A stretch of 64,000 nucleotides of DNA from a bacterium (lineage in GTDB: Bacteria; Patescibacteriota; Patescibacteriia; UBA10025). The position numbers and the translations under genes were made by a program. The stretch lies in assembly GCA_021815445.1 (NCBI GenBank), contig JAKAGM010000001.1, forward strand, positions 403,710 through 467,709. The letters run 5' to 3'. The notes below the pieces were generated by a model that was given only the letters and a program-made list of their open reading frames with translations, had not been told where the DNA came from and made no database searches. Position 1 is the first letter of the stretch. Every line of letters begins with the position of its first letter. This document shows positions 9,452-40,232 of the stretch, piece by piece.

Positions 9452-12283
9452 TTATCTGTTCTTTCTGACAAACTCCATATGCTCATCAACGGGTGTTTCA
9501 ACGACTTTCTCTATGGGCGGATTTAGCGGGAGGATGAACTGGAATGTACTCCCCTTGCCTTTGCCTAAGCTTTCCACCCAGATTTTCCCTCCGTGCGCTT
9601 CGGTGAGACGGCGTGCGACATAGAGCCCGAGTCCCGATCCGTCAGGATTGATCTGCGCGATACCGTATCCGCGGACGAACTTGTTAAAAAGTCCTTTCGC
9701 CTCTTTCGGTTCGATGCCGATACCGGTGTCCTTGATGCGCACGTGAAGATTGTCCCCTTCCACTTTCGCGCTGACTGACACGGAGCCCTTGTCGGTGTAC
9801 TTGATGGCGTTATCAATCAGGTTCATCACCACGTCGGAGATTTTATCCGAGTCAAAAGGAACTTTGGGGAGCGGGCCCTTTATTTTTTCGAATACAAGCT
9901 TGAGCTTCTTGTCTTCGGCTGCTTTTTTGAGCACATCTACGCTCTTGACGATAATGTCTTCGATGCTCGCGGGAGCTTTTTTGAGCACTAGGTTGCCCGA
10001 CTCTATCTTTGACACGTCGAGGAAAATTCTGATGAGGCGGATCATGCGCTTGGATTCCTCGAGTAAACTTTGCATGATCCCGAGCTGGTCCTTTTTTACC
10101 TTGCCGAAGTCGCCGCCGACAAGCATCGACAGGTACCCCATGATGCCGGTCATCGGCGTACGGAGCTGGTGCGAAGCGATTGATACGAATTCTGATTTGG
10201 CCTGGTCAAGCTCTTTTAAGTGTTCGTTGGCCTCTGCGAGTTCCTTGTTCGATTCCTCTATTTCCCTGTACAGCTCGATGTTCTTATACACGATGCCTGT
10301 CTGGTTAGCGAGCGCTTTCATAATCTGCAAATCTGTTTCCTTGAGCTCACCCGGATCCGCGTCGAGCACATAGTCGATAGCGCCCACCATCTCGCCTTCT
10401 GACTGAATTGGAACAGCGATGACGGTCTTAACGCCGAGGGTGCGCTGAATCGCATTTGCCGCATCCGCCGGCACAGGCGGAGAAATGAACTCTGCAAGCT
10501 TCTCCCCTATTTCCACCTTGCCGGCTTTGATGGAGCGTATGGAGCGTGTATTATCTTTATCAAAGCGTCCCCAAAGTTCGGATATAGGTTTCGGGAGGAA
10601 TTTGATAATTTTGTCGGTGCGCGCGCTTTTGGTGATAGCTTCAGGGAAGAGTTTCCGCCTGTCTTTGCCCAGGAACAGCAGGATGCCTCCGATGAAACCC
10701 ATTTCAGTGGCGATAGAATCAACAATGTCCTGCGTGACGCGCTTCAGGTCAAGCGAACGTGTCATGAGCGTGGTGACTTTCTGGATGGCCGAGAGGAACC
10801 TGTTGCGCTCCTGCAGTTGGGAGTTCGTCGACTGCAAGTCGTGGGTCGCGATATCTATTTCTTTTTGCAGTTGGACATTGAACTGCTTGATCTGGTCGTA
10901 GAGCTGGGATTTCACGATGGCCGATGCGAGCTGGGGGCCGAGCAGTTCAAGCAGGTTAATGTCCTCATCCCCGAACGGGTCGCCCGAAAGCTTATGCCCG
11001 AGCACGAGCACGGCGTTGACGTCTTTCTCGACAAAGACCGGCGAGACGAGGGACGCGTCAAGCTGGTCGAGCTGTTCCTTTGAGCCCTCCAGGTCAGCCC
11101 GGGCCTGTTCGTCAGTCGTATCCTCTATCTTCCGCTCGAGCGCTTCAAGCACCACGACGCGCTTTGACGCAACGAGATACCGCATGAGCGGGCTCGTGCG
11201 CCTGATCGAGTACGCCTGGTGCACGCCCTCCCCGCGCACGACAAAGTCTCCCCGTTTCGTCGGAGCCACATAGACGACGGTCCTGCTGATTTTCAAATCT
11301 CTCGTGAGTTTGTCTTCAATGAGGGTGGTGAGCTTGTTCAGGTCAATTTCGCGGTTGATGATGTTGGAAAGGTCTGAGAGAAGTTTTTGGTAGTCAATGC
11401 GCTTTTTGTAGAAAAGGTTGTCGGTTACGTTAGCTATGAAGCGCTTCAAGGGATCAAGGATGAGGACGATAAAGATGGAGACACCAATAGCAATAAGACC
11501 TTTTGCTGCGAGCGAAACACCAAGACTCTGGGGAAGTAAAATTGCTAGACCAATAATTGAAGCTGAAAATAACAAGACCACGATCGAAAAGGCTACCGCT
11601 CTTAAAACTAGAACTCTAACATCTAACAACTGATGTCTGAATATCGCATAAATGATAAAAATCAACCAAATAATTGAGAACGCAGGACCAATTTGGATCA
11701 AGTTGTAGTTGCCTATCCAAGGTAAAATCAGATTAAACGATACACCAATGATACCCGACATAAGAGTTCCAATAAGTAAATATCGAAGCTGCAACCTAGA
11801 CGTTCCTTGCGACCTACGGAGATTACTGAAATAGTTAATAAATAAGATAACAAAATAGAAGATAAACCAGAGACTGTATAAGTGGTAAAGTGACCCCAAG
11901 TCAATGATGTTTGGATTGCCAACTATGACTCTTTTAATGAAGTACTTAGTTGGAATCAAAAAAACAAAAAGAATAAAAGGTGCAGTCGTGAGAAAGAATT
12001 TTAACTTTCCAAAAGACTTATGCCGATAGGGGAAAAGAAAAGAGAATTGCAGTAAACTTGTCGCGATAAGAGCCGCAGCTATGTAATATTCAATTCCCCA
12101 GATTTTTGCCAATTTAACACTTCCTGACATACGAAACATCGCGATCCCAAATACCCAACCAATGATTCCTAATACATAAAACAAGAAGACTCTGTTCTTT
12201 AATGAATCACTTTTTCTATAAAGCAAAATAAAAAGCAACACAAACTCGAGTATCGCCTCTATTATCAGGATATTATTAAGCAT
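9452..12283 (-). CDS. sensor histidine kinase (7TM N-terminal sensor, two GAF-like domains, HisKA, HATPase_c)
   Basis: 943 aa. About 7 N-terminal TM helices. H-box ASHQLRTPMTGIMGY. ATPase motifs IDNAIKYT, GSGLGLYVARRL, GKGSTF. The N-terminal third is markedly AT-rich compared with the kinase core. Confidence 0.85.
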   Translation of the reverse strand: MLNNILIIEAILEFVLLFILLYRKSDSLKNRVFLFYVLGIIGWVFGIAMFRMSGSVKLAKIWGIEYYIAAALIATSLLQFSFLFPYRHKSFGKLKFFLTTAPFILFVFLIPTKYFIKRVIVGNPNIIDLGSLYHLYSLWFIFYFVILFINYFSNLRRSQGTSRLQLRYLLIGTLMSGIIGVSFNLILPWIGNYNLIQIGPAFSIIWLIFIIYAIFRHQLLDVRVLVLRAVAFSIVVLLFSASIIGLAILLPQSLGVSLAAKGLIAIGVSIFIVLILDPLKRFIANVTDNLFYKKRIDYQKLLSDLSNIINREIDLNKLTTLIEDKLTRDLKISRTVVYVAPTKRGDFVVRGEGVHQAYSIRRTSPLMRYLVASKRVVVLEALERKIEDTTDEQARADLEGSKEQLDQLDASLVSPVFVEKDVNAVLVLGHKLSGDPFGDEDINLLELLGPQLASAIVKSQLYDQIKQFNVQLQKEIDIATHDLQSTNSQLQERNRFLSAIQKVTTLMTRSLDLKRVTQDIVDSIATEMGFIGGILLFLGKDRRKLFPEAITKSARTDKIIKFLPKPISELWGRFDKDNTRSIRSIKAGKVEIGEKLAEFISPPVPADAANAIQRTLGVKTVIAVPIQSEGEMVGAIDYVLDADPGELKETDLQIMKALANQTGIVYKNIELYREIEESNKELAEANEHLKELDQAKSEFVSIASHQLRTPMTGIMGYLSMLVGGDFGKVKKDQLGIMQSLLEESKRMIRLIRIFLDVSKIESGNLVLKKAPASIEDIIVKSVDVLKKAAEDKKLKLVFEKIKGPLPKVPFDSDKISDVVMNLIDNAIKYTDKGSVSVSAKVEGDNLHVRIKDTGIGIEPKEAKGLFNKFVRGYGIAQINPDGSGLGLYVARRLTEAHGGKIWVESLGKGKGSTFQFILPLNPPIEKVVETPVDEHMEFVRKNR

Positions 12284-12290
12284 TTTGACT

Positions 12291-13181
12291 TTACTTTTTT
12301 CTTAATATACCTAATCCATGAATCATTAAGGGCTCATAGATGATCTCGAAATCATCGGCAAAATTGGTCTCATGAAGAATATCAAAAAATTCGACCGGAC
12401 TTCGGTGGACCATTCTCCACTTTACTGTTTTAGAGATAAACTTTTCCTCAAAGTTTTTGTTAATGTTTGAGGTTATTATAGTTGATCCGCTATTTAATAT
12501 CCCATAGAGTTTATTAAATACTCTAACTATCTTTTCATCATCGAAATAATCAACGATGCCGACCATTTCTATAATATCGGGAGCCTTTTTAGAAACTAGA
12601 TCATAAGAATCTTCTATATTTAATAGATGTTGATTAACATTGTCCCCAACGCCATACTTTCTTGCTAGTTCTCTGCTGTAATTAATTGCATTAATATCTC
12701 TGTCTACCAATGAAGCTTGAATATTGATCAAAGATAGATCAATCTCAGAAATTACTTCAACTACCCCCCTAGCAGATCCCGATCCTAAACTAACTATACT
12801 TATATTTTTTTTACTCTTTGATCGCTGGTTAATTTCATTCATCAAAATTTTTTTGAAAAGTCTCAACCTATTACGCAGAGCTCTTGGATTTCTTTGGTTT
12901 AACCAAATAAAATCGAAAAGGCTCACCCAATCCGGTTTTAACTGCTTACCAGTAAAATTATACATCTCCTCGAGTGCCCTGTATTGTGTTGAAAAGGTTT
13001 TGATAACTTCTGCTTTCTTGCTTTGTATCAATAATTTATGACCCCATTTATAGGGAAAAATAGTTGCAACCACCATCCAAAAAAAATTAAATGCCCTTAG
13101 AAAAAATGATATTTTCTCATATTCTTGACTTACATCCATGCTGACAGGCTTTCCATTAATCTTGTTTTTTGTGGTAATCAT
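12291..13181 (-). CDS. putative SAM-dependent methyltransferase with N-terminal TM segment
   Basis: 296 aa. Motif I-like VSLGSGSARG, acidic LVDRD, motif III-like APDIIEMVGIVDYF. 8 bp upstream of the histidine kinase gene. Confidence 0.45.
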   Translation of the reverse strand: MITTKNKINGKPVSMDVSQEYEKISFFLRAFNFFWMVVATIFPYKWGHKLLIQSKKAEVIKTFSTQYRALEEMYNFTGKQLKPDWVSLFDFIWLNQRNPRALRNRLRLFKKILMNEINQRSKSKKNISIVSLGSGSARGVVEVISEIDLSLINIQASLVDRDINAINYSRELARKYGVGDNVNQHLLNIEDSYDLVSKKAPDIIEMVGIVDYFDDEKIVRVFNKLYGILNSGSTIITSNINKNFEEKFISKTVKWRMVHRSPVEFFDILHETNFADDFEIIYEPLMIHGLGILRKK

Positions 13182-13360
13182 TTTTTTATTTGAATTAAAT
13201 CTCTTGACTCACCATACCACAAAACTCAGCTTTTTTCAAGTTCTTATAATAATTTCTAAGAATGCCAGACAAAAAATAGATAACTATGTAAAAAACCCCG
13301 CTCTCACGGCGCTTATATAAACAGCGTAACCTTTCTTTCCCCCAGTATCAACTCAACACA

Positions 13361-14038
13361 TCATTTAGTAACCACTTCAAGCGAATTAAGCACCTGCGTA
13401 AACGCTTGTTCGAATCCTTCATTTAAAACACAAGGCTTTTTAATAACAAGATTCCATTCAGGCGATGAACTTCTGGGAGACAAATAGTATATTTCTCCGC
13501 CATTGTCGCCCTTGTTGGGTATCTCACCTTTTGGAAGTATTCCAGTCCTTTTATAACCATGAAAAATCGTAAGGTTTACCTGCATAAATGTTTGATCTTG
13601 CATTTGTTTTTGACTTTCAATAAATGATGGCGTAATGAGATTTTTCTCAGTAATAAAAAAGTTAACCTGTCCACAGGTGAGATCAGTGAAAGTAATTGGA
13701 CTGTCGGTGGTTGAAATCGAGACCACCGCGGACTCTTTGGCTGAGTAATTTCCTAAATCATTAACAAGTGCTGGATCTCCATTATAAAATGTATTCCAAT
13801 CTTGCGGTACAGAGAAAGTAATCTTTTGGTGGGTGCTGAGGGGAATTGTTACAATCTTGGGTGTTATCTGCTCGACCTGAGTTTGAGAATTGCGAGAGTA
13901 TATTGATTTCAGCTGCCAGACTGAAAAACCGACAACTAGCAACACAGCTAAGATAATAATTACTTGAAAGTATTTTTTTGGCATAGGATTGAGTATAGCA
14001 TTAATAAATTGGAGGGAGGTGCATTGGAAACAATGCAC
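13361..14038 (-). CDS. hypothetical membrane-anchored protein
   Basis: 225-aa track ORF with a GTG start at 14038; an internal ATG at 13984 (MPKKYFQVIIILAVLLVVGF, TM helix) is an alternative start. AT-rich. Confidence 0.45.
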   Translation of the reverse strand: MHCFQCTSLQFINAILNPMPKKYFQVIIILAVLLVVGFSVWQLKSIYSRNSQTQVEQITPKIVTIPLSTHQKITFSVPQDWNTFYNGDPALVNDLGNYSAKESAVVSISTTDSPITFTDLTCGQVNFFITEKNLITPSFIESQKQMQDQTFMQVNLTIFHGYKRTGILPKGEIPNKGDNGGEIYYLSPRSSSPEWNLVIKKPCVLNEGFEQAFTQVLNSLEVVTK

Positions 14039-14099
14039 CTCCCTCCCTTCATGAAAAAGAGAGACTCACGTATCTCTTTACCCTAGCGAGGCAGATCTG

Positions 14100-14762
14100 T
14101 CAGTTCATGGCCTGATATACGCTGTACTTGGTTCCCACATACCTGCGAAACCAGTCGAACGAGACAAAGTGCACGAAGACATAGTCAGGAAAGTCCTCCG
14201 TGAACCAGTTGGAGTCGACCCAGTACATTCCCGCAACACCGTTATAAATTACATAACGATAGAAAATTGTGGTATGCGGACCATTGTACTTGCTGGTTGC
14301 TAGATGCATCTGAATGATGTTGCCGACCCCGAGGCCGCTCTCGATCGTGCCGCCGCCGATAACATTGCCGTCAACGATTTTTATCACGTGTCCACTGTTG
14401 AGATAGAAATCGGTTGAGCTCGTCGCGGGCAGAGCAAAGCCCGTGGCATCCTTGACAACCGCGCTCGCCCACGGTTTGCACTGTACGTAGACATTCTGAC
14501 CAATGTCCTGGTGCGCACGGTTCCAGATCGCCTGGTTAATATACCACCACCAGGCATTATCCGCAGCAAGTGGAGATCGAACAGGAACTTTAAGCACGGT
14601 ATCAGTCGGTGCGATCATTGATAGATCGTACGCCGAGCATTCAGATGCCACATTTCCAGCAGATTCAGTGCTGTTTGTAACTCTTTCACCACATCCAACC
14701 ATCGCAATCACCAGCACAAGCATAAGGCCGGCCATCGCCCAATACAACGCTTTCGGTTTCAT
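14100..14762 (-). CDS. lipoprotein with a CHAP-like Cys/His pair (possible peptidoglycan hydrolase)
   Basis: Lipobox LVIAMVGC. NVYVQCKPWASAVV (Cys) followed about 40 aa later by NSGHVIKIV (His), resembling CHAP-domain catalytic residues. This is a recalled pattern only. Confidence 0.45.
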   Translation of the reverse strand: MKPKALYWAMAGLMLVLVIAMVGCGERVTNSTESAGNVASECSAYDLSMIAPTDTVLKVPVRSPLAADNAWWWYINQAIWNRAHQDIGQNVYVQCKPWASAVVKDATGFALPATSSTDFYLNSGHVIKIVDGNVIGGGTIESGLGVGNIIQMHLATSKYNGPHTTIFYRYVIYNGVAGMYWVDSNWFTEDFPDYVFVHFVSFDWFRRYVGTKYSVYQAMN

Positions 14763-15193
14763 GGTGTGAAACCTTCCTTTCCATCTTTTTCTGTACGTCA
14801 GTGGGCGCTCAATTTGTCGAAGAGCAACTGATATAAGGAGAGACCCACGTTTTCTCCCTACTCAGCTTTTTTGGCACGTTCCTCACCTCACTTCCTTTTT
14901 TGAATGAACGGTTTTTGGGTTTACCTGTCCTGTTTTGACTCAATGGAATGTCAGCTTTTGCACAATTTCACTGTTTGATCACCACTTTCTTAGACGGCTG
15001 TCAGATGCGACGGCGCAAGACTGTTCCCTGTCTCCATCTCCCTCGTTCTCATTATTCTTGTGAACGAACCGCCGTCGGTTTTGAAAAGAAATCTGCAATT
15101 CTCCTACTATCATTATACCATTTTGACAAATTTTCTTTAACCTAAAACGGGAGTACGAAAGAGCACTCCTGGCGCGAGCTCATTTTGCCCCAC

Positions 15194-16594
15194 TTAATCT
15201 TCGGCTACACCCTTAACAGCTCGCGCAATCGCCATCCGATACATTTCCGCTTGGACGAGCGCGCTGTTGGCGTGTACGTAGAGCTTTTTCAGATAGGCAA
15301 TCTGTTCGGCAAAGAGTATTGCACGGGAAGACTTGTTCACCAGCACACCGATAGCGGTAAGCGTATCCTCGTGCCCGAAAGGTAAAAGTGCGCGGATGTG
15401 GTTTTCCCTCAGGAAGTTTTGCGCGGACTTAAGTAACCGCGCTTCTTCATTAGAGAATCTCTCCAATCGGTAAGGCAACTCATCGACAACAAGTATCTCC
15501 TGCCGCATTCTCAGAAATTGAGCAAGTTCCCCATGAGCTGCAATGTTCACTCCGCCTTTATTATCCCGGAAATCTTGATCCGGGCTGCTTCTCTGAAGAA
15601 TGTACCCGTCATACTCAGGCAGTACTCGCGCGAGCTCTGAGCGGATTTTCTCCACAAGGTCATTGAAATGCACTGATGATTGGGCGACTAACTGCAGTCT
15701 TTGCAAAGAATCAGACTGTTCCTTTTCGCGGCTGACAAAAATCCGATCTACGAAGGAGTAGATCAGCCTGCGAAGGGGCTCCGCGGTAAAACCGACAATC
15801 AAAATAGCGATAAAGATTTTGACTCCCTCGGTAAGAATGGCGTACTGGGTCAACTGTTGTAAGACAACAATAAGATATGCATAAGTGATAAAGAGAATAG
15901 CGAAGGAGAAAAACTGGACAATCCCCTTGCGTATTACAAACTGGATATTAAAAAAACGGTAACGGGTGATCGCATACGATATAAATGAAGCAAAAACAAG
16001 TGCCGTGAGACTGTCAAATCTTGCCAGCCACAATACATGGTGGAGAGGTGAAGCAAAATCAATGATAATAATAATAAATATTGGGGCGGCAAAGCCAAGT
16101 AATACGTAATTTAACTGCATTCGCTCGAGTCCCGAGGCCTGGTGTCGCATCTGCACTAAATGACTAACCGCCCAAATCAAGATGCATGAGCTTGGAATAG
16201 CATAAAGAAGAAAGTATTTTCCATCCGCGATTTCAAAACCGCGAGGCGTGGTGAGCACTTGCATTGCAATCACCAGATTAGGAATAAGCGCAAGAAAAAA
16301 TAAAACTACAGAGTATATAATAATCGCAAATTTTACCACGGGTTTAAGTATCAGTTTGGCATATGCCGCAGCCCAAAAGAATATTCCGCCGATAAGCAAC
16401 GCGCCGACCGAATACGTTAGATTCACATATGGATACCGAGGGAATTGATAGTATATATAATTAACAAAAACCCAAAACGCTATAAGGAATACCAGATAAG
16501 CAAACTTTTTTTGGATATCATTTCTTGCCTTTCTGAGCACGACAGCTCCTAGGACAAGATTGAATACTCCGGCAATCAAAATAAGGATATTCAT
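15194..16594 (-). CDS. kinase-less 7TM + GAF-like sensor-module protein (paralogue 3)
   Basis: 466 aa, about 7 TM helices plus a cytoplasmic GAF-like domain. Shares RYRFFNIQFVIRKG...AEPLRRLIYSFVDRIFVSREKE motifs with the two neighbours and with the N-terminus of histidine kinase 9452..12283. No H-box or ATPase motifs. About 36% GC. Confidence 0.6.
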   Translation of the reverse strand: MNILILIAGVFNLVLGAVVLRKARNDIQKKFAYLVFLIAFWVFVNYIYYQFPRYPYVNLTYSVGALLIGGIFFWAAAYAKLILKPVVKFAIIIYSVVLFFLALIPNLVIAMQVLTTPRGFEIADGKYFLLYAIPSSCILIWAVSHLVQMRHQASGLERMQLNYVLLGFAAPIFIIIIIDFASPLHHVLWLARFDSLTALVFASFISYAITRYRFFNIQFVIRKGIVQFFSFAILFITYAYLIVVLQQLTQYAILTEGVKIFIAILIVGFTAEPLRRLIYSFVDRIFVSREKEQSDSLQRLQLVAQSSVHFNDLVEKIRSELARVLPEYDGYILQRSSPDQDFRDNKGGVNIAAHGELAQFLRMRQEILVVDELPYRLERFSNEEARLLKSAQNFLRENHIRALLPFGHEDTLTAIGVLVNKSSRAILFAEQIAYLKKLYVHANSALVQAEMYRMAIARAVKGVAED

Positions 16595-16599
16595 AATAG

Positions 16600-18042
16600 T
16601 TATTTCATAATCCTCTCAATCGCCATCCGATACATTTCTGCCTGCGTGAATGCGTTGTTCGAAATTGCATGAAGCTTCTTGATAAACGCGATCTGTTCAC
16701 TGTAGAGCACACTTCTTGGAGATTTTCCTATAAGCAGGAAAATAATGGAGACCCGGCCTTCTTGGTCCAAAGGTAACACCGCCTTAATTTTATGCTGGGC
16801 TAGAAACGATTGGGATTCGCGCAAAGCCCGAACTTCGTCCTCGTCGTACCTATCGAGTTTATAAGGAATCTCGTCGGTCACCAAGAGTTCAGTGTGCTGT
16901 TTTAAGAAAGTTATCAATACATGATCAGATGGAATTTTCACATTCATTTTTCCTTTGGCGGTAAATTCATTGTTTTCTCTTTTTAATACCGCAACATCAA
17001 AATCGTTAAACACATGCGAAAGCTCGCTTCGGGTTTTCTCAATAATCTCATCCACGTGCGACGCCGAGCGAGCCAATAACTGCATCCGACTCAGCGCTTC
17101 ATCCTGCTCCCGCTCCTTGCCGGCGAAGATTCGATCAATCCATCGATAAATAAATCTCCGTAGAGGTTCGGCGGTCACGCCAACCACCAGCACGGCAATA
17201 ATAAGAAGCGTTTCACTTGAAATATCAAGAGAACCCCTGACATTGCGTTGAAAGAAAAGTATGAGATAGATATAGACGCTGAAAAGCAGGGCAAAAGTTA
17301 CAAACTGGACAAACCCTTTTCGTATCGCAATACGAATATCCATGAGACGATAGCGAACGATACCATAACTCATTAATATAGCCATAATGACCGTGGCTAG
17401 GGGCCCATAGGGGGAAACAACAGCATAGTGTGATTCAATCCCCTTAGTTACAAAAGCGGGGTACAATAAATTTGCGTAAAGCCCGGCAGCGGCAGCGACA
17501 CTGAATCCAGCAAATACCCAAACTACTTTCAAACGCTCAATTCCACTCGATTTCAGCATTCGAACAAAGAGGATAGCTAAACCAACTAGAATAAATAATA
17601 GAATATATGCTGCATATGGATAATATAATCTCCCATATATATTATCGTTTATTTGCTGCCGAGGAAGTATAATAAGTTTGGATGAAATTAAGCTTGTGTA
17701 GCTTACTATGAAAAAGAACCCGGAAACCAATAACAACGAATACTTAGTAAAAGGATGGATAGTGATCTTTTTTGGAAAGTAAAAACTGAAGAATAGGAAG
17801 GAAGATGCAATGATCGCCGCAAATGCAAAAGTAAAATACGTCCAAATAAGCGCCGGGTAATAATCTTTTAAGTTTCCCGAGAACCAATTAGATAATACCC
17901 ACCCTGAGATAGAAAAACACAGTATAAAAAATAACTGATTTACTCGCTCTCTGGGACGATGTAATAATACAACCAGACCCAGTATAAAATTGGAAATTGC
18001 AACAAGTAATGTAATAACGAAAAAAGTGTCCATATTAAGCAA
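16600..18042 (-). CDS. kinase-less 7TM + GAF-like sensor-module protein (paralogue 2)
   Basis: 480 aa with the same architecture (RYRLMDIRIAIRKGFVQF...AEPLRRFIYRWIDRIFAGKEREQDEALSRMQLL). 5-bp gap to paralogue 3. Confidence 0.6.
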   Translation of the reverse strand: MLNMDTFFVITLLVAISNFILGLVVLLHRPRERVNQLFFILCFSISGWVLSNWFSGNLKDYYPALIWTYFTFAFAAIIASSFLFFSFYFPKKITIHPFTKYSLLLVSGFFFIVSYTSLISSKLIILPRQQINDNIYGRLYYPYAAYILLFILVGLAILFVRMLKSSGIERLKVVWVFAGFSVAAAAGLYANLLYPAFVTKGIESHYAVVSPYGPLATVIMAILMSYGIVRYRLMDIRIAIRKGFVQFVTFALLFSVYIYLILFFQRNVRGSLDISSETLLIIAVLVVGVTAEPLRRFIYRWIDRIFAGKEREQDEALSRMQLLARSASHVDEIIEKTRSELSHVFNDFDVAVLKRENNEFTAKGKMNVKIPSDHVLITFLKQHTELLVTDEIPYKLDRYDEDEVRALRESQSFLAQHKIKAVLPLDQEGRVSIIFLLIGKSPRSVLYSEQIAFIKKLHAISNNAFTQAEMYRMAIERIMK

Positions 18043-18054
18043 TGTATTATCCAG

Positions 18055-19452
18055 TTATTTCGTAATCCTCTCAATCGCCTGCTTATAGGCTAAAGCGCTG
18101 GTGAAAGAAAGTGTGGCCTGCTGACCAAAGTTTTTTAGAAACTTGATTGAATCTGCGGTAAAAGTCGGAGAGCTTTTTGTATCCGGGAAAACATAGGCCC
18201 CGAGAAATTCATCACCTGATCCAAGTGGCATTGCTAGGGCAATTCCTTTTGCCTTGAGACTTTCTAGAATGGTACCCAACCCTTCTTCGCCTTCTTCTAT
18301 TCGATAAGGTAATTCCTCTGTGATAAGGATTGTTCCTTTTGATAATTCATGACTGAGTGCGTCGTTAGAGGGAATAGTGAGATCGCCTTTCGGGTAACTT
18401 GTAAGTTGATTCTTCTGTGGGTCAAAAAGAAGAAAGGAGGTCGAACATCCAAGCACTTTATTGAGCTCTGCTGAAACTTTCTCGACAAGCGACCGGAACT
18501 GCATTGTAGAACGTGAAATCAGCTCGAGGCGCTGGAGAGCTTCTTTATCCGCACGTTCTTTGCTCGCAAATAGTTTATCGATAAACCTATAAATAAAGCG
18601 CCGTAATGGCTCGATGGTAATAACAATCAAAAGGACGGCGATGAGAACCGTGTTGCCCTCCGAGAAATCCAGCGAATCCTTCGCTGCTTTCTGTAAAAAG
18701 AGAATGATGTAAGTATAAATGCCGAAAAGGGTGCCGAAAGTGAGAAACTGGACAAGTCCTTTACGAATAATTATTCTGATGTCGAGGAAACGGTAACGTA
18801 GTATTGCGTAAAAGCTACATAGTGCAAATGTTAACGTTGATATGTTCGCAATCCCAAAGTAATAAGTTTCATGCCGATTGTAAGCAAAGAAGACGCTCGC
18901 ACTCAACCCTACCACAACAGAGAAAGTGTAACTAAATAGAACATATTTGAGCTGCAGCTTTTGGATACCTTTTAATATTCTGTATTTTAGCAACAGAGCA
19001 CCTAATGAGATTGGAATAAAATAAATGGTTAATATCCCAAGATAAATGAAATATTGAGAATAATTGTATATTAGGTTGTCCCCATCATAAAAAAATATTT
19101 TTCCAAAAAAAGTTAATGCAACGACAAAAAGAATAGGAAAAAGGAGAAGTAGCTCTTTCGTCAGAGTAAGCTTTTTACTTTCACGAGGGAAATGTAAGGA
19201 AAAAATAGCAACAAAATACGAAATCATTGCAGCAGCGGCGAAGTCCATTTTTGAAAAAATGAGATTCAGATTTGGACTTTGCCGTAACGAAGAAGTTTCG
19301 AGTGCCCCAGATATTACCCAAATGGTCCCAAAAATGAGAAAACCAACAAACCGGCGATAGGTTTTATGTTTTTTCCTACTCCTCAAGGTCACAAAAGTCA
19401 GTAACAAATAGGCAGCTGCTGTTAGAACTATCAAGAAAAAGATGATATCCAT
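18055..19452 (-). CDS. kinase-less 7TM + GAF-like sensor-module protein (paralogue 1)
   Basis: 465 aa with the same architecture (RYRFLDIRIIIRKGLVQF...IEPLRRFIYRFIDKLFASKERADKEALQRLEL). 12-bp gap to paralogue 2. Confidence 0.6.
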   Translation of the reverse strand: MDIIFFLIVLTAAAYLLLTFVTLRSRKKHKTYRRFVGFLIFGTIWVISGALETSSLRQSPNLNLIFSKMDFAAAAMISYFVAIFSLHFPRESKKLTLTKELLLLFPILFVVALTFFGKIFFYDGDNLIYNYSQYFIYLGILTIYFIPISLGALLLKYRILKGIQKLQLKYVLFSYTFSVVVGLSASVFFAYNRHETYYFGIANISTLTFALCSFYAILRYRFLDIRIIIRKGLVQFLTFGTLFGIYTYIILFLQKAAKDSLDFSEGNTVLIAVLLIVITIEPLRRFIYRFIDKLFASKERADKEALQRLELISRSTMQFRSLVEKVSAELNKVLGCSTSFLLFDPQKNQLTSYPKGDLTIPSNDALSHELSKGTILITEELPYRIEEGEEGLGTILESLKAKGIALAMPLGSGDEFLGAYVFPDTKSSPTFTADSIKFLKNFGQQATLSFTSALAYKQAIERITK

Positions 19453-19485
19453 ATTGTTTGTTTCAACAATTAAAGATGAGTTTAG

Positions 19486-20067
19486 TTACTTCTCATCCCC
19501 CTCCATATACTTCTTAATCACCTTATCCCTCAAATAATCCGCCTTCGTGGTCCTATACTGCTTAGCTTTCAATTTAAGGAAGCGCTCGATCTGAGGAGTA
19601 ATGCGCAAGGTAAACTTGATTGTCGGGAGATCTTTGCTTTCTCCTGTCTCAATGCGGTGCAGGAAATCACTGAGAATCGCGGGCAAATCAGGCTCTTCAT
19701 AGACTTGGATTTTGACCGAGTCGGGAATCTTGCTGTTGGTAAAATAGCCCATGACACTCTTCGCCCCGGAATGCTTTTCATAGAGATAAAGGATTGGCTT
19801 TTTCTGGGCGATGGCGTAGGCGAGGAGGTAACCGACCTCGGAATCCTGGACGGACGCCTCGATGATGATACCGTCCATCTTGTCGAGAACGTTTTCTCCG
19901 GCATCGCTCATGCGCTCTATCTCGCTTTTCGTGAGGTCTTCTTTGCCTTCATGGTCGTGGTTGGTGATGACCATAACGCCCGAATCTTTGAGCACGTCAA
20001 CGATTTTAGCGTACAGCCGCTTGAGGTAATCCCTGTGGTTATAGGTTGTGTGGACAAAGATTCTCAT
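19486..20067 (-). CDS. hypothetical protein with C-terminal ribbon-helix-helix-like tail
   Basis: Start moved to internal ATG (MRIFVHTTYNH...), which overlaps the upstream asparaginase-family stop by 4 nt (ATGA). C-terminal IKFTLRITPQIERFLKLKAKQYRTTKADYLRDKVI resembles a CopG/Arc-type RHH. Confidence 0.5.
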   Translation of the reverse strand: MRIFVHTTYNHRDYLKRLYAKIVDVLKDSGVMVITNHDHEGKEDLTKSEIERMSDAGENVLDKMDGIIIEASVQDSEVGYLLAYAIAQKKPILYLYEKHSGAKSVMGYFTNSKIPDSVKIQVYEEPDLPAILSDFLHRIETGESKDLPTIKFTLRITPQIERFLKLKAKQYRTTKADYLRDKVIKKYMEGDEK

Positions 20068-31699: not shown

Positions 31700-31900
31700 G
31701 ATTTGGGGGATTTGTCAAGGGAAAATCGCATCACCCACCCCATTCTACCGCAGGCACGGCGGCTCGCCTCGCTAAGCCTACGGCGAAGCGGGCCTGCGGT
31801 GGGGTTCGGGGGCGAATATGTTGTACCACATTTCGAGCGCGGGCCGCCGTGCCCACGGTCGAAATGTTGGTGCCCGCGGTCGATTCGTTTTTGGGCGATC
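31700..31900. repeat. cluster of GC-rich REP-like hairpins (GGGGGCGAATA...CGAGCGCGG family)
   Basis: Inverted repeats (CCACCCCATTCTACCGCAGG/CCTGCGGTGGGG; CCCACGGTCGA...CCCGCGGTCGA) in a non-coding stretch. The motif GGGGGCGAATA...CGAGCGCGG is shared with the insert inside the transposase gene at about 32600. Confidence 0.5.
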
Positions 31901-32330: not shown

Positions 32331-32891
32331 TTACAACAACCGATTGATTTTTTTACCATCAACAAATTGATACGGAGCCATGTGGTATTTGGCGGGCAAT
32401 TCGGATTTGATAGGGTTAAATGTAATGTATTCAATAACGGTGCGGAGATATCCATCATTGTCCACGATGCGGGCGTAAAAACGGGGTTGGAGGATGGAAT
32501 ACGGGATATCATATTTCACGCGTATTTGTTTTGCGAAATACGATTTTACCGTATACATGAATTGGGAAATGGTGTAACCGGCATCCCCCACCGCGGACAC
32601 GGAGATCCGCGGTGGCGATTGGGGGCGAATACATTTACCCCCATCCCGAGCGCGGCTCTCTGCGGCCGCGCTCGCATATGTATTTTGTTTCACCAATACA
32701 TGCACATGGTCCGGCATGATTTGGTACGCCAAAATGTCGAACCGTTTTAACCGGCCCGCGTTGACCATTATTCTCCCCAAAATTTCCGCATATTCGGTAT
32801 CCTCGAATAACAACAAATCCACACGCGTACGAAACGTGACAAAATACGGATATTCATATTGATGGATGCGCCGTTGGGTCATAATAAACAA
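32331..32891 (-). mobile_element. IS200/IS605-like Y1 (HUH) transposase, REP-associated tyrosine transposase (RAYT)-like, carrying an about 90-nt in-frame palindromic insert
   Basis: HUH motif MPDHVHVLV. C-terminal LQPRFYARIVDNDGYLRTVIEYITFNPIK matches the RAYT WQxRFYDH...YIxxNP block. About 30 extra residues (ASAAAESRARDGGKCIRPQSPPRISVSAVG) lie between the two conserved blocks, encoded by a GC-rich palindromic segment in an otherwise AT-rich gene. Confidence 0.65.
32585..32670. repeat. REP-like double-hairpin element inserted in frame in the transposase gene
   Basis: CCACCGCGGACACGGAGATCCGCGGTGG and GAGCGCGGCTCTCTGCGGCCGCGCTC palindromes. Shares GGGGGCGAATA and CGAGCGCGG with the intergenic cluster at 31700-31900. 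Confidence 0.55.
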
Positions 32892-34867: not shown

Positions 34868-35330
34868 ATTCTGGACATTGCCCAGAATTAATCCTGAGCG
34901 AGGGGCGAAGTGAGAGAATCGAAGGATTTCGTTGATTTACATAGAGCAGAATTTAAAACCATTTTAACCCGCCATGTGTCCAATTCAGCGGGACCCTTCG
35001 ACTTCGCTCAGGGTTGCGTGCCTGCGGCACACAAAAAAAGAGCGGAGCCGCATGGTCCGCTTGAAACTACGACCGAAACTTTTGGGCATCCCGCCGGCAG
35101 GCCCGGCAGGATTTGACGTGCCGTTCAACAGCCTTGTACCATCTCCCATGTTCGGGAAGGGTACCGACAAGATACTTAGGAAGCATCGAGCCGAGAAACT
35201 CATTTGTGCAATCCGACGGAACGACGCAATCGGGTTGCGCTTGAATCTTAGCCCTTGGATATGCGCCATGATGCACTCTGTCTCATCCTCCGTACCGTTC
35301 GATGTTGGTGTTTGGTGAACTATACGGTAG

Positions 35331-35418
35331 AGAATGAAAAAAGTAAAGGGCGGCCCAACGAAGAGGCGGGATTCGGAATCCCGCTACCTTGCGCATCGGC
35401 CGGATTCAGAATCCGGCC
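35331..35418. repeat. intergenic paired-palindrome element, copy 1
   Basis: AGAATGAAA..AACGAAGAGG leader, then GCGGGATTCGGAATCCCGC (35366-35384) and GGCCGGATTCAGAATCCGGCC (35398-35418), followed by an A-run. Confidence 0.7.
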
Positions 35419-35499
35419 TCATCATAATAAAAAAAGCTTCCCAAAGACTTCTTGGGAAGCGGAACGAGCGAAAGTCGAACCCGAAAAGGTGTGAACGGC

Positions 35500-37260
35500 T
35501 TAGTGCAAGCCGAACATGCGCGCCTCAGAATCAGGCAGGTGGAGCAAGGGAACGTTTCCCGCACGGAATGCGGCAAACATGTCCTCGTCATTCACCGACC
35601 CGGTGGTCGTGAACACGACACTGGGCTTCTGCGCGGCGATGAGCTTAGGACCGTCGTCAAACGGGAAAAAGCTGTCCGAGCACCACGCGGCGCCTTCAAG
35701 CTTGTGCCCGATCCACTCAGCGAGACTGATAGCGAGCCGGACGCACTGGACACGGGCTTTCTGGTTCGTCGCGTTGACGAGCAGCATGCCGTTCTTGACC
35801 GCGCAGACCTGGTTTGAGTTGCCGGTCTGGCAGATGGCAATCGCCATGACCAGGTCCCAAACCGCCTCCGGGGTCAACTTCGTTCCCGCGTCACGTCGCA
35901 TTTCGTCGATCCGAAGGATCTTCGTGTAGTTCGGTTCAGTGAGGAATCCTCCCCGCACCATTCGGAACCGCGGAGCGGTGTCGATCGACGCGGCTGACAG
36001 GGACCGTAAGGCGGGATTGACCACGAGACGGCATTTGTCGCCTTTGCGTTTGAGCAGGGCGATCGCGGCATCGGAGAATGCGGGCGCGATGATAACATCA
36101 AGAATGCGCTTCTTTGCGGTGCCGTGCCAGAGCAGAATATTCGCCGCGGCCTCATCGATTTCGAAGGTGGCCATAATAGTGGCGCCGAAAACCGCCTGGC
36201 GGTCGCCCATGAGCATCTTGTGGAGTGCAACGTACCGGTCACCGTGCGCTCCGGCTCCACAGGAGTTGCCGTGCTTGAGGCCGAGAGCAATCTCGGGCAC
36301 AATGTTCAAGTTGACCTCGAACCCGGCCGCCATGTGTGTCGCTGTCTGCAACGCACGGTCAAGATCGCAGATGTTGTTGTAGCTGAGGTCAGCGCCTTCA
36401 ATGAGCCTGAAGTTGCTGATGGCGAGAGGGTCTTCCACTCCGGGGAACGTCCGGTAAAGCGCCGCCGGAGACTGGGGGCCGTTCTCTCCCTTGAGAGGCC
36501 TGCCGACACGTTCGCCGAAAAGCGCCGCGTAATGCCCTGCACTGTGGTACTGGGCGGCGCTGGCCAGATAATGGCCGCAGACAGCCCAGCTTTTCGACAT
36601 AAGATGCTGCATGACTTCTTCCGGCGGCCTCCCGTCCTTGAGCGACGGTGCGACATACTTGTGAAAGTCTCTCACGTTGGTCAAGACGATCCTCTGACCC
36701 TTGGCCGCGGCATGAAGGGCCAGGATCCCGCCGACGTCGGTCTCTTCAATGACCGATTCGACCGTGCTTCCTTCCCGTTTGATCTCGTCGACGAGCGGAT
36801 AGAGACCGACGAGCACGAGATCGATTCGCGGAATGCGCAGACGGGCAATCTCCGCAATATCTTCTGCAGTGCTCTTTGAAAGAAGCCCGGCCGCGATCTG
36901 GCGGGAGATGGATTTGACGCGGCCGCCGAGGATGGCGCCGCCTCCGATGAACTCCGCAATGTCAACTGCTTGAATTGAGTTCTCGCGAAGCAGCTTGACG
37001 GTCCCCGTCGTGCCGATGATGCCCCAGCCCAGAACGTTCAGGATGCCGGCGACTCCGGTGATACCCGTTTTGTCCTTTGACATAATCAGCGCAATCGGCT
37101 GATGGCGGGCGAACGGCGATTTACGCCGGGGCTTGCGCGCAGGAACAGGTCCCTCTGAGCCTGATCCAGCCTTGCGCTCATTGCCTTTGGGAGTAGCGAT
37201 AGAAACATGTGTCCCCTTACTCCCCTTTCTCCTTTGAGGTGTTGCCTTCTTGACTGGCAT
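35500..37260 (-). CDS. purH: bifunctional AICAR transformylase/IMP cyclohydrolase PurH with a basic N-terminal extension
   Basis: MGS-like domain (IALIMSKDKTGI...LGWGIIGTTGT) and AICARFT domain (...CSDSFFPFDDG). Start placed at ATG 37260 (MPVKKATPQRRKGSKG...), which is preceded by AAGGAAGG 5 nt upstream; the track ORF start at 37359 has no Shine-Dalgarno. Confidence 0.88.
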   Translation of the reverse strand: MPVKKATPQRRKGSKGTHVSIATPKGNERKAGSGSEGPVPARKPRRKSPFARHQPIALIMSKDKTGITGVAGILNVLGWGIIGTTGTVKLLRENSIQAVDIAEFIGGGAILGGRVKSISRQIAAGLLSKSTAEDIAEIARLRIPRIDLVLVGLYPLVDEIKREGSTVESVIEETDVGGILALHAAAKGQRIVLTNVRDFHKYVAPSLKDGRPPEEVMQHLMSKSWAVCGHYLASAAQYHSAGHYAALFGERVGRPLKGENGPQSPAALYRTFPGVEDPLAISNFRLIEGADLSYNNICDLDRALQTATHMAAGFEVNLNIVPEIALGLKHGNSCGAGAHGDRYVALHKMLMGDRQAVFGATIMATFEIDEAAANILLWHGTAKKRILDVIIAPAFSDAAIALLKRKGDKCRLVVNPALRSLSAASIDTAPRFRMVRGGFLTEPNYTKILRIDEMRRDAGTKLTPEAVWDLVMAIAICQTGNSNQVCAVKNGMLLVNATNQKARVQCVRLAISLAEWIGHKLEGAAWCSDSFFPFDDGPKLIAAQKPSVVFTTTGSVNDEDMFAAFRAGNVPLLHLPDSEARMFGLH

Positions 37261-37344
37261 CTGACCTTCCTTTCGGTTGAATGTGAATGTCCTTTGTAGC
37301 TGTTGCTTTTCGTTTTGGAAAATTACCTTAACATATTTATAGGC

Positions 37345-37419
37345 AGAATGAAAGAGCAACGAAGAGGCGGGATTCGGAATCCCGCTACAGGGCGTATCGG
37401 CCGGATTCAGAATCCGGCC
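37345..37419. repeat. intergenic paired-palindrome element, copy 2
   Basis: Same leader, GCGGGATTCGGAATCCCGC (37367-37385) and GGCCGGATTCAGAATCCGGCC (37399-37419), then an A-run. Confidence 0.7.
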
Positions 37420-37491
37420 TACTCACAATTTTAAAAAAACGCCACCCACAATACGACATGTGAGTGGCACGGAACAAACTTCAGAGAACGA

Positions 37492-39330
37492 CTACCTGCC
37501 CGTGAACACAGGCCTGCGCTTTTCGACGAACGCGGCCATACCTTCACCCTTGTCCGCGGTTGAAAACAGATTTTCCTCGACATCGACGCAGCTGAGGCCG
37601 AGATTCGCCACCATTCGAATGAGCGAACTGATGGCAAGCGGCGAAGTCGTATCAGTGATCTGCCTGGCAACCTCCACGGCCCGAAGCAGAAGCTCGTCGT
37701 GCGGAACGACTTCATTAGCGATCCCGAGGTCGAATGCTTCCCGTCCTGTGAATTTTCTCCACGGCTGAAAGAGCACCGTGGAGGCACGTGTGACTCCCGC
37801 GCGCTTCACCAGCCGCGCGACGCCGTCAAATCCAGGAACAATACCGAGAGTTGGCTCGGGAAATCCGCACTTCGCCAACTCCGACATGATGATGTAGTTG
37901 CACGCCAACGCGGTTTCAAGACCTCCGCCAAACGCGTAACCGTTCACAGCCGCGATCCATACCATTTCGGAGAGCTCAAGACCGCGGAGAGTCTCTACTC
38001 CCAAGGATGTGTATTCACGGCAACCTTCGTGATCCATGAGCTGCATCGCCTTGATGTCGGCTCCGCCAATGAATGCGGCTCCGGCCCCGGTCAGGATCAC
38101 GGCGCGGCACCCGCGTGTGATGAGGTCTTGGTGTATCGCCCGGAGTTGAAGCAGGATGCTCTCATTAAGCGCATTCATTGCCTCAGGGCGGTTGATCGTC
38201 ACGACGGCGATGCGGGTGAGCCCGTCATACTCCACGATGAAGTCGCTGGGAATCAGCGCCTTCGAAACATCTTCGGGAGGCATGATCCGCGGGAAAGTCC
38301 CGAACCGTTGAAGATGGTCCTGCACACACCTGTCGACATCCAGAAGCAGCATCTCGGCCATCATTTCACCCGGTCCTTTGGGCCAGGCGAGGCAGGTGCG
38401 GACAGCTCTGTCGACCTGGTAGAGTCCGCCCTCGATGTCAGGCGCGACGCGCAGAGCATTGGCAAAGATGAGTCCGCGGAAACGGTCGGCGAGTTTGTCG
38501 ACATGCAGCGAATCAGGATCGCCCTCCAGATTCCACTTCGCCTCTGATTCGACCTGTCTGGTGAGTACGTCCGGGATGACCACCCAGTCGCCGAGATACT
38601 TTTGCATGGGTTTCGCGGCGAGAGCGGTGACGGGCACGCCGGTAAAGTTCATCAGCCAGAACGGTCCCTTCTTGAACCCCGTGGCCTGTACGCCGGCCGC
38701 TTCGATGGTCGGAATATCGAATCCTTCCTGAAGCATGGCGCAGGCCTCGAGCAGGTACGGAACGAATATCCCGTTGACCACGAAACCGGACTGCCGCCCT
38801 TCCACGATGAACGGGAAACAGCCGATATCGAGGGCAAATTCCCTGAGTTTCTCGATGAGACCTTCGGGCGTGTTGGAATACCGGACGATCTCCACCCCGG
38901 GATTGACTTCCACGGGCGACATCGGGTGGAACCCTGCGTCAGCGCCGATGTCGGCGAGCGGAATTGCCGAAGTGACTGACACAATGGGCACCCCGTCCGG
39001 AATCACCTTGCGTGCCCGGCTGATGGCGTCTCCTTTGACATCGGCATCCTCGACAACAGCCTCGATGATCAGATCATCAGACCCGACATTTTGCAGTGAT
39101 GTAAAGCCGTGGGTCCACGATATGCGCCCCAGTATTTCAGCGTATCGGGCCTGCTTAAGCTTGCCCTTGCCCTTGGCTTCCTCGAGCCGTTTGACAACAC
39201 CTGCTCTCGACCTTTCGACAGCATCATAATTCACCTCAATGATGCTGACTCTTCTGCCTGTCTTGGCGATACGGATGGCAAGGCCTCCGCCTATCCATCC
39301 GCCGCCGATGATGATGACTTTCTGGAACAT
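37492..39330 (-). CDS. fused 3-hydroxyacyl-CoA dehydrogenase / enoyl-CoA hydratase
   Basis: N-terminal NAD-binding motif IIGGGWIGGGLA (HCDH domain). C-terminal crotonase fold (AVVTINRPEAMNAL...GAGAAFIGGADI). Confidence 0.8.
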   Translation of the reverse strand: MFQKVIIIGGGWIGGGLAIRIAKTGRRVSIIEVNYDAVERSRAGVVKRLEEAKGKGKLKQARYAEILGRISWTHGFTSLQNVGSDDLIIEAVVEDADVKGDAISRARKVIPDGVPIVSVTSAIPLADIGADAGFHPMSPVEVNPGVEIVRYSNTPEGLIEKLREFALDIGCFPFIVEGRQSGFVVNGIFVPYLLEACAMLQEGFDIPTIEAAGVQATGFKKGPFWLMNFTGVPVTALAAKPMQKYLGDWVVIPDVLTRQVESEAKWNLEGDPDSLHVDKLADRFRGLIFANALRVAPDIEGGLYQVDRAVRTCLAWPKGPGEMMAEMLLLDVDRCVQDHLQRFGTFPRIMPPEDVSKALIPSDFIVEYDGLTRIAVVTINRPEAMNALNESILLQLRAIHQDLITRGCRAVILTGAGAAFIGGADIKAMQLMDHEGCREYTSLGVETLRGLELSEMVWIAAVNGYAFGGGLETALACNYIIMSELAKCGFPEPTLGIVPGFDGVARLVKRAGVTRASTVLFQPWRKFTGREAFDLGIANEVVPHDELLLRAVEVARQITDTTSPLAISSLIRMVANLGLSCVDVEENLFSTADKGEGMAAFVEKRRPVFTGR

Positions 39331-39479
39331 AGTCCCTCCTGTGGAACGGGTGAGAGTAACATGGACTTCAACAATGAATACGTAACAAAACGTTGTTCAC
39401 GGGTTGGCAAAGAACATAACAAGCAAAAACTTGTTTCGATACCGTACCAAGAACTCCCCGCTGAGTCAAGAGTATTCGA

Positions 39480-39614
39480 CGATTAATAACAGCGAGGAGG
39501 CGGGATTCGAAATCCCGCTACAGGGTGCGTCGGCCGGATTTCCTTCGGGCCCGCCTTCGCCCTGAAGGGCTCTCCTCGAATCTGAGACTCTCGAGTCGAA
39601 GACAGAATCCGGCC
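39480..39614. repeat. intergenic paired-palindrome element, copy 3, with a 62-nt insertion splitting the second palindrome
   Basis: GCGGGATTCGAAATCCCGC (39500-39518). GGCCGGATT (39532-39540), then a 62-nt insert (39541-39602, containing its own hairpins CCTTCGGGC/GCCCTGAAGG and GAGACTCTCGAGTC), then CAGAATCCGGCC (39603-39614). Confidence 0.65.
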
Positions 39615-39683: not shown

Positions 39684-40232
39684 TTACTGCACGATAACTG
39701 TTCCTGTCACCGACGGATTAGTATGATCGTGGTAGCCGTAGGTGCCTGCGGTATTGAAGGTCTTCTGGTACATGTCGCCGGGTGCCTCAATCTGTTTCGG
39801 ATCGTCCCATATGCCGGGATACGCGTCATGGGTCGGGTGAGGATTCGGGGCAACCTGGTGCGATGCGGTGTCGTTGTTCAGCCACGTGACTGTCTGGCCG
39901 GCTGTTATCGTCACCGTCTGAGGAATGAACCCTGATGAGGTGATATTAACAGTCTTTCCCTGACTTATCGTGGCCGTATTGGTGTTAGCTGAGCTGTTTG
40001 TGTTTGCAGCTGCGTTCACGCTGGTTGAGCTGTTCGTGACAGAACTATTAACGTTGAGACCTGCATTGGTGTTGAGGTTGGTGTTCAGGTTCACAGATGT
40101 GTTGGTCAGCGTCGACGTATTAAGGGTGGTATTCGTCGTGTTCGTGTTGGCATTATTGTTGTTGCCTGAAAGGGCAAACCACACGATTCCCGCGACCGCG
40201 AGCACTCCCACAATGATGAGGAGAATTTTCAT
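39684..40232 (-). CDS. cupredoxin-like (plastocyanin/EfeO-type) domain protein with N-terminal TM helix and N/T-rich linker
   Basis: 182 aa. TM helix MKILLIIVGVLAVAGIV, N/T low-complexity linker, C-terminal ITAGQTVTWLNNDTASHQV...YGYHDHTNPSVTGTVIV cupredoxin-like pattern. Confidence 0.55.
   Translation of the reverse strand: MKILLIIVGVLAVAGIVWFALSGNNNNANTNTTNTTLNTSTLTNTSVNLNTNLNTNAGLNVNSSVTNSSTSVNAAANTNSSANTNTATISQGKTVNITSSGFIPQTVTITAGQTVTWLNNDTASHQVAPNPHPTHDAYPGIWDDPKQIEAPGDMYQKTFNTAGTYGYHDHTNPSVTGTVIVQ

Follow-up and report, generated by a model that had tools for sequence, protein, structure and literature searches.

The 64-kb stretch of DNA analyzed here (the window) belongs to an 877-kb metagenome contig of a Patescibacteria genome, and carries, in three successive intergenic gaps around its PurH gene, one copy each of a two-hairpin unit that is probably a doublet of repetitive extragenic palindromic (REP) sequences, i.e., of the type known as REPIN (REP doublet forming hairpins). 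All genes flanking the units are on the minus strand, and the sequences between the copies are different genes rather than a tandem repeat. The gaps were compared with those of L012, a 19-kb contig from a different sample that is syntenic with the window, with 69-74% protein identity. The features of the locus are the following, where A and B denote the two hairpins of a unit and RAYT stands for REP-associated tyrosine transposase.

35356-35428, minus: copy 1, putative REP doublet (REPIN-like); covariance model 79.4 bits, E 1e-27; in gene-sense order ATTATGATGAG, A hairpin GGCCGGATTCTGAATCCGGCC (35398-35418), spacer, B hairpin GCGGGATTCCGAATCCCGC (35366-35384), CTCTTCGTTG
37357-37429, minus: copy 2, putative REP doublet; A hairpin 37399-37419, B hairpin 37367-37385, GTAG foot on both; 80.7 bits
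39490-39624, minus: copy 3, putative REP doublet; B hairpin 39500-39518, with the loop variant GAAATCC; 60.1 bits across the insert
39532-39540 and 39603-39614, minus: A hairpin of copy 3, in two parts
39541-39602, no strand: 62-nt insert in copy 3, at the apex of its A hairpin, boundaries unambiguous
35500-37260, minus: PurH gene
37492-39330, minus: FadB-like gene, a 3-hydroxyacyl-CoA dehydrogenase/enoyl-CoA hydratase fusion
39684-40232, minus: cupredoxin gene
35436-35460, minus: intrinsic terminator of the PurH gene, with an ortholog in L012; copy 1 begins about 10 nt beyond it
37439-37470, minus: intrinsic terminator of the FadB-like gene, with an ortholog in L012
39628-39657, minus: intrinsic terminator of the cupredoxin gene
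35319-35347, minus: promoter-like boxes TTTACT-N17-TATAGT, just downstream of copy 1; kept in L012, which has no unit
39441-39469, minus: promoter-like boxes TTGACT-N17-TACGGT, upstream of the FadB-like gene; kept in L012
32331-32891 (ATG at 32882), minus: Y1/RAYT-family gene; HUH motif PDHVHVL, Tyr helix EYITFNPIK; next to a Band_7 gene

Each unit consists of two perfect palindromes of 19-21 nt with a GGATTC-N-GAATCC core, which agrees with the size and stem-loop form of REPs, and measures about 73 nt in copies 1 and 2 and about 135 nt in copy 3, owing to the 62-nt insert. The three copies lie where the first-pass annotation of this DNA had placed them, and the palindromes and the 62-nt split that it described are exact. 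The sequences GCGGGATTCGGAATCCCGC and GGCCGGATTCAGAATCCGGCC are present letter-perfect in copies 1 and 2, and copy 3 has GCGGGATTCGAAATCCCGC. A search for GGATTCNGAATCC with at most one mismatch returned five matches in the window, against 0.35 expected, and none of 100 shuffled sequences reached five. By repeat search, the units group into one 80-nt family, whose three members begin at 35356, 37357 and 39490, the displaced 3' part of the third being found at 39603 (families D1 and D4), and the covariance model (R1) detected no fourth copy in the 64-kb window. The regional fold of the units is predicted at about -45 to -54 kcal/mol (z about -4.2). On the sense strand, a tetranucleotide foot, GTAG, precedes five of the six window hairpins, in agreement with the GT[AG]G foot of REPs, and foot and basal stem together read GTAG-GCCGGAT...ATCCGGC. 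The stem consensus is (NNAG)GC[C/G]GGATTC-N-GAATCC[G/C]GC, and the spacer between the hairpins is variable, at 12-14 nt.

The exact ends of the units could not be fixed by comparison with L012, which is too diverged inside the gaps, and the unit ends bear no direct repeats (target-site duplication) of the kind that would mark a MITE (a miniature transposable element with terminal inverted repeats). From the longer shared leader that had been proposed for the unit, only AACGAAGAGG (CCTCTTCGTT in gene sense) recurs, as the right end of the unit; the remainder, AGAATGAAA, aligns with L012 and is thus flank or promoter spacer, since L012 has no unit there. Likewise, the 'A-run' that had been counted as a component of the unit is really the T-tract of the three minus-strand intrinsic terminators listed above. 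No Rfam family matched the region at its gathering score, two chance-level matches elsewhere in the region having E up to 5, and no tRNA or transfer-messenger RNA (tmRNA) was found in it. With no tRNA, no tmRNA and nothing in Rfam, a tRNA-like or T-loop reading of GGATTCGAATCC was dropped.

The three gaps share one order on the gene-sense strand, namely stop codon, terminator, unit, promoter-like boxes and then the next gene. The promoter-like boxes at 35319-35347 and 39441-39469, being conserved in L012, are flank and lie outside the element. Counting related loci as well, five of nine intergenic units begin 9-14 nt past the T-run of a terminator (three in the window and two in the locus L020), and their left junctions are alike (TTTTT-ATTGTGAGTAG|G and TTTTT-GTATTGAGAAG|G). 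Orientation is mostly, not always, co-directional with the flanking genes. The placement behind terminators may reflect a choice of target, or else survival of the units where insertion is harmless. Beside copy 1, the window also has two overlapping open reading frames (ORFs) without a family match, at 34974-35318 (plus) and 34985-35269 (minus); the public gene call takes the plus-strand ORF, yet the conserved TTTACT-N17-TATAGT boxes point to a minus-strand transcript.

When the three orthologous gaps of L012 were aligned to those of the window, the terminators, the promoter-like boxes and the 5' untranslated regions (5' UTRs) were found to be kept, and the two-hairpin unit was absent from all three. 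Thus, with its terminators and boxes in place and no units between them, L012 indicates that the units are insertions; presence and absence at orthologous sites is what was observed, and either gain or loss would fit it. For a test of polymorphism, the protein collection offered, apart from the genome of the window itself, no relatives beyond L012 (74%) and one at 41%. One L012 gap has 44 unrelated nucleotides in place of the unit, and the other two (approximately 3190-3390 and 5395-5575) hold a different repeat of about 150-190 nt, with a purine-rich arm followed by a pyrimidine-rich one, the two copies being 73% alike. Since different small repeats are found at the same positions, the stretch behind the terminator is a niche that is occupied differently in different lineages.

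To look for the family elsewhere, species-representative genomes and metagenomes of the Joint Genome Institute (JGI) were scanned, with both hairpins demanded exactly, so that diverged or single REPs went uncounted. This exact scan returned the doublet at four unrelated loci, all in one Patescibacteria-labelled metagenome-assembled genome (MAG; JBAZCI01/Ga0172379) and its source metagenome; the scan matches L002, L004 and L010 were dismissed as chance. More copies came from loci that were retrieved through protein homologs. In all, at least four other Patescibacteria genomes carry the doublet, at unrelated loci, with identical stems and with different spacers, flanks and central loop base. The GGATT/AATCC core is invariant in 28 hairpins from seven genomes. 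Among the same 28, the two hairpin types differ at stem pair 7, with G-C in one and C-G in the other (16 vs 12), and stem pair 8 is C-G, T-A or A-T. Family-wide, the foot is NNAG (GTAG, GGAG, GAAG, TGAG); when either hairpin of a unit is read on its own strand, the foot is found on its outer side, and the outer flanks, AGGC...GCCT, are complementary. With the foot outside both hairpins and complementary flanks, the unit amounts to one REP present twice, in inverted orientation, around a variable spacer. The spacers of the three window copies agree at 13-15 of 18 positions, whereas cross-genome pairs average 40%; this closest likeness among the window spacers indicates that the three copies were amplified within this genome.

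Two variants of the unit deserve separate mention. An extragenic doublet upstream of a RAYT gene (L020, 8650-8711) is B-B rather than A-B, i.e., unit composition varies. A diverged relative lies on a Kerfeldbacteria contig (L015, 17900-18010; 28 bits with model R1), where GTAG-CGCGGGG..CCCCGC is accompanied by GGCCGGAAT-GGGG-ATTCCGGCC-TAC, and a T-run follows immediately.

The hairpins are physically linked to RAYT genes, being found in frame within the coding sequence. This was first noted in the locus L001, where the doublet lies inside a RAYT gene and is translated as RGGRIQNPAQGSYCGIRNPASA, the protein matching NCBIfam REP_Tyr_transpos at 106.7 bits against a cutoff of 80. All five RAYT genes of this clade that were checked at the DNA level (L001, L017, L019, L020 and L021) contain in-frame hairpins; in L019, foot and stem read GGAG-GACGGAT...ATCCGTC. 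The stems occur in compensated variants, namely GGCCGG/CCGGCC, GGACGG/CCGTCC and GGTCGG/CCGACC, in which the change in the 5' arm falls on a synonymous third position of a Gly codon and the change in the 3' arm alters the residue (Ala, Ser or Thr), a pattern indicating that the nucleic acid, and not the peptide, is under selection. In L020 and L021, the hairpins of the in-gene units come in the reverse order. Extragenic doublets lie 1.3-5.5 kb from RAYT genes of the clade, and the intergenic doublet of L020 carries the same GGTCGG variant as the in-gene copy of that genome. The RAYT loci themselves are in conserved synteny, as SSB-GreA-LTD protein-RAYT and as SLT-RAYT-Band_7. At the protein level, closer homologs of the L001 RAYT have the peptides G-R-I-x-N-P and G-I-x-N-P-A at the loop in question, and distant homologs have none there; since this signature is found in only about 10 of 185 related proteins, the GGATTC type of REP is confined to a narrow RAYT subclade.

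An AlphaFold model of the RAYT of this clade (predicted local distance difference test, pLDDT, 80; predicted template modelling score, pTM, 0.79) was confident apart from residues 100-123, for which it gave a pLDDT below 50 and no secondary structure, and which cover the peptide encoded by the first hairpin and most of that encoded by the second. The in-frame doublet is thus predicted to encode a disordered loop. The best structural match of the model was PDB 4ER8, i.e., TnpA_REP bound to a REP hairpin (E 1.2e-8).

Three further observations concern the in-gene hairpins of this clade. The RAYT gene of L020 has three of them in frame (B, B' and A; 10280-10373). That of L021 (3027-3707) has an extra in-frame insertion of about 100 nt beside its hairpins (3357-3470), flanked by 14-nt direct repeats CCGACCTTCTCGGA, and this insertion is a separate event from the 62-nt insert of the window. 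Lastly, a more distant member of the clade (L022, 6552-7169) has another palindrome, AGCTCTGGCC..GGCCTGAGCT, in the same loop, which suggests that the REP type and the RAYT change together.

The window has a Y1 gene of its own, about 2.4 kb from the nearest unit, so that the statement in the first-pass annotation that nothing in the annotated genes explains the palindromes is incorrect. Its product matches Pfam Y1_Tnp (E 2e-8) and falls below the cutoff of NCBIfam REP_Tyr_transpos (70.2 bits against 80), and its nearest solved structure is E. coli TnpA_REP (4ER8), in a match that spans the HUH and Tyr regions. Its homologs are nearly all from Patescibacteria, several sources label them RayT, and the Y1-Band_7 adjacency is seen in three genomes. 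The gene has two GC-rich palindromes in frame, at 32591-32612 and 32648-32673, right behind the HUH motif, and related in-frame hairpins (GAGCGC...GCGCTC and CGCGGG...CCCGCG) are likewise placed in six genomes (including L003 and L012-L015). In L012, a clear extragenic copy of its own Y1-internal hairpin lies beside the gene, at 10584-10609. In L003, a homolog of the window Y1 lies 3.2 kb from a unit. Five other loci of the window Y1 clade have no GGATTC hairpin within approximately 10 kb. Since loci of this clade lack GGATTC hairpins and carry hairpins of their own, the window Y1 probably does not serve the units as their cognate enzyme and its proximity to them is probably not causal, and its candidacy was rejected.

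Elsewhere in the window, the interval from the Y1 gene to the Band_7 promoter contains a GC-rich structured stretch (about 31790-31870, minus). A second repeat family that would join it to approximately 32600-32680 (ATTCGCCCCC..CCACCGC) was set aside as unproven, as the likeness, by eye about 75% over 50 nt, appears in BLAST only as matches of 11-13 nt. The region 12000-20000 is low in GC (0.41 vs about 0.51) and has three tandem paralogous ORFs on the minus strand (15194-16594, 16600-18042 and 18055-19452), which have their 5' ends and upstream sequence in common (repeat families D2 and D7).

The 62-nt insert cuts the second palindrome of copy 3 exactly between GGCCGGATT (39532-39540) and CAGAATCCGGCC (39603-39614), without a flanking target-site duplication, and is identical in an independent sample (L007). 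For the hairpins that had been described within it, stability does not exceed that of shuffled sequence (z = +0.02 and -0.14). Nor was an intact source of the insert, which had been suggested as a thing to look for, encountered: no second copy was present in about 290 kb comprising the window and related loci, or in plasmid and phage collections. The insert may be a nested element, an aberrant product of strand joining, or a remnant of a longer ancestral loop.

The anatomy of the units, their spread across genomes, their presence or absence at orthologous sites and their physical link to RAYT genes are direct observations, and we consider it probable that the units are REP doublets of the REPIN type, forming a family whose cognate RAYT belongs to a narrow clade of Patescibacteria. 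By analogy with E. coli TnpA_REP and the TnpA of IS200/IS605, from which the enzymology, the direction of transfer and any present mobility in this genome are extrapolated, the RAYT would bind the hairpin folded on single-stranded DNA. It would read the foot tetranucleotide together with the invariant GGATT/AATCC stem, and would cut and rejoin single strands, so that now and then the doublet would be copied to another place. The three window copies would have been amplified within this genome in this way, and may persist between a terminator and the next promoter, where insertion would do little harm. A bolder version, in which the in-frame doublet of the RAYT gene is a functional master copy (a donor for extragenic copies or a cis-site for self-control of the RAYT), insertion is aimed at single-stranded or hairpin DNA 3' of terminator T-runs, and the 62-nt insert is a footprint of RAYT strand joining or a new loop-targeting mini-element, is unlikely.

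Several findings weigh against the REPIN interpretation. Outside this genome, the GTAG foot is loosened to NNAG. In the doublet alignment, 13 of 17 stem pairs are invariant and only one pair has compensatory changes, and covariation alone would be no proof of a hairpin, because a dimeric binder of duplex DNA would also preserve the palindromic symmetry. Wobble pairs show no strand asymmetry, four fitting the sense and three the antisense strand; a strand assignment by G-T wobble asymmetry was dropped on this account, as 4 vs 3 is no signal, and assignment to a replication strand by GC skew was dropped as well, the skew being too weak. Known copies are few (three in 64 kb, and at least four in one MAG), whereas classical REPs number tens to hundreds per genome. 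Lastly, a RAYT of the GGATTC clade was found neither in the 64-kb window nor among the database matches on the 0.88-Mb contig of this genome, and the sole Y1 gene nearby is of another clade, with other internal hairpins.

The explanations that compete with REP doublets differ in what they make of the symmetry and the position of the units. A core that is invariant in 28 hairpins, dyad-symmetric and situated upstream of promoter-like boxes could also be the operator of a dimeric transcription factor controlling purH, the FadB-like gene and the gene next to them, and symmetric half-sites would likewise give compensated changes; the first-pass annotation had found the palindromes suited to a dimeric DNA-binding protein. 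Nonetheless, we hold this to be very unlikely, since the palindromes are absent from the orthologous gaps of L012, where promoter boxes and 5' UTRs are retained, the same hairpins are in frame in the RAYT coding sequences of five genomes, and doublets also adjoin functionally unrelated genes; moreover, perfection through the center over 19-21 nt, in a doublet with variable spacer, is typical of REPs. Even less credence can be given to a purely local duplication of one intergenic segment, without a wider family. The three window copies are indeed each other's closest relatives, within 4.3 kb, and there is no further copy in the 64 kb, but no fewer than four other genomes have the doublet, at unrelated loci and within RAYT genes, contrary to occurrence only here, and different genes separate the window copies where a tandem repeat would be expected. 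This makes a local duplication extremely improbable.

It was also considered that the units, whatever their origin, serve the host in RNA, as back-up terminators, insulators or 3'-end stabilizers. The earlier suggestion of REP-like, RNA-stabilizing hairpins holds in its first half, as the units are REP-like in kind, with REP/REPIN anatomy and the same hairpins in RAYT genes of relatives. The second half is not supported here, as each unit follows a strong terminator and precedes the next promoter boxes. The great predicted stability of the hairpins, the co-directionality of most intergenic units with their flanking genes, and the position of five of the nine just past a terminator T-run would be in keeping with a role in RNA, and REPs of enterobacteria affect termination and mRNA decay (PMC3733652, PMC3479197). 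However, the terminators in front of the window units are canonical, with T-tracts of 5-7 nt, so little transcript should reach the units. In addition, no U-tract follows the hairpins, their wobble pairs have no sense-strand bias, L012 manages without units at the same genes, and no Rfam family is matched. On balance, a host function in RNA is quite improbable.

In terms of significance, the units represent no new regulatory motif, RNA or mechanism; they are explained as a REPIN-type family tied to a RAYT clade. REPIN-RAYT systems have been argued to be long-lived, vertically inherited partners of the chromosome, and have to our knowledge been studied almost only in Proteobacteria. What is mainly of interest is the host group, together with the conservation of the in-gene copies: Patescibacteria genomes of about 0.9 Mb, which have very little spare DNA, keep two RAYT clades, both in conserved synteny and with a separate set of in-frame hairpins for each. 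If confirmed, this would widen the host range of the REPIN-RAYT system, and, with copies few and the genome small, would offer a minimal system in which to ask what REPs and RAYTs do for their host.

The association of REPs and REPINs with RAYTs was reportedly worked out in E. coli and Pseudomonas, by Nunvar in 2010, Bertels and Rainey in 2011, and Ton-Hoang and Messing in 2012, the last with the structure PDB 4ER8. The window units resemble those systems in their GC-rich palindromes, foot tetranucleotide, inverted pairing, variable spacer and extragenic location near gene ends, as well as in a Y1/HUH gene that is vertically kept in conserved synteny. They differ in that the two hairpins of a doublet are distinguished by one conserved, compensated pair (C-G vs G-C), other genomes have an NNAG foot, few copies are known, and the cognate RAYT was not found in the window; the host, too, is different, being of the Patescibacteria or candidate phyla radiation (CPR) lineage, with a genome of about 0.9 Mb. 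Our literature search found no paper on REP/RAYT systems in CPR bacteria. By its published definition, which the units here match, a REPIN consists of two inverted REPs, in which the REPs are conserved and the spacer is variable (10.1101/2021.07.10.451892). The E. coli REP that was crystallized with TnpA_REP reads GTAGGACGGAT...CATCCG (PMC3479197), and is almost identical in foot and basal stem to the REPs described here (GTAG-G[C/A]CGGAT...ATCCG), although the stems here have none of the bulges of E. coli REPs and are perfect.

Compared with the ends of IS200/IS605 and with their miniature derivatives, the palindrome-associated transposable elements (PATEs), the enzyme has the same Y1/HUH fold, there is no target-site duplication, and the recognition of imperfect hairpins on single-stranded DNA was counted as a common trait. 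Unlike in those elements, however, there is no transposase inside the unit, the associated gene is at a single locus of conserved synteny rather than in multiple copies, and the two hairpins repeat a single REP in inverted orientation, where those elements have a left end distinct from the right. Rickettsia palindromic elements (RPEs), of 100-150 bp, are scattered in frame over many unrelated genes, to which they add a surface peptide, and we know of no link between RPEs and RAYTs. Set against this general picture of RPEs, the present repeats are likewise palindromic and able to sit in frame in protein-coding genes, the difference being that their in-frame copies lie in the RAYT gene itself.

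A closer parallel to the in-gene copies is found in subclass 2.4 of TnpA_REP, in which REPs lie within the tnpA_REP gene, between HUH and Y, with the reading frame intact, and a highly variable beta3-alphaC insertion holds short DNA repeats, with low counts of associated repeats (Quentin et al. 2018, PMC6006769). This subclass, which corresponds to RAYT group 4 (Bertels et al. 2017, PMC5581495), has been described mainly from Cyanobacteria and Bacteroidetes (PMC6006769). Both RAYT clades described here share with it the in-frame REPs between HUH and Y and the beta3-alphaC insertion, a placement that follows the published description and not the profiles of its authors. What sets them apart is that a clade of 44-60% protein identity has conserved the internal doublet, with compensated changes, which suggests long-term maintenance of the in-gene doublet rather than sporadic insertion.

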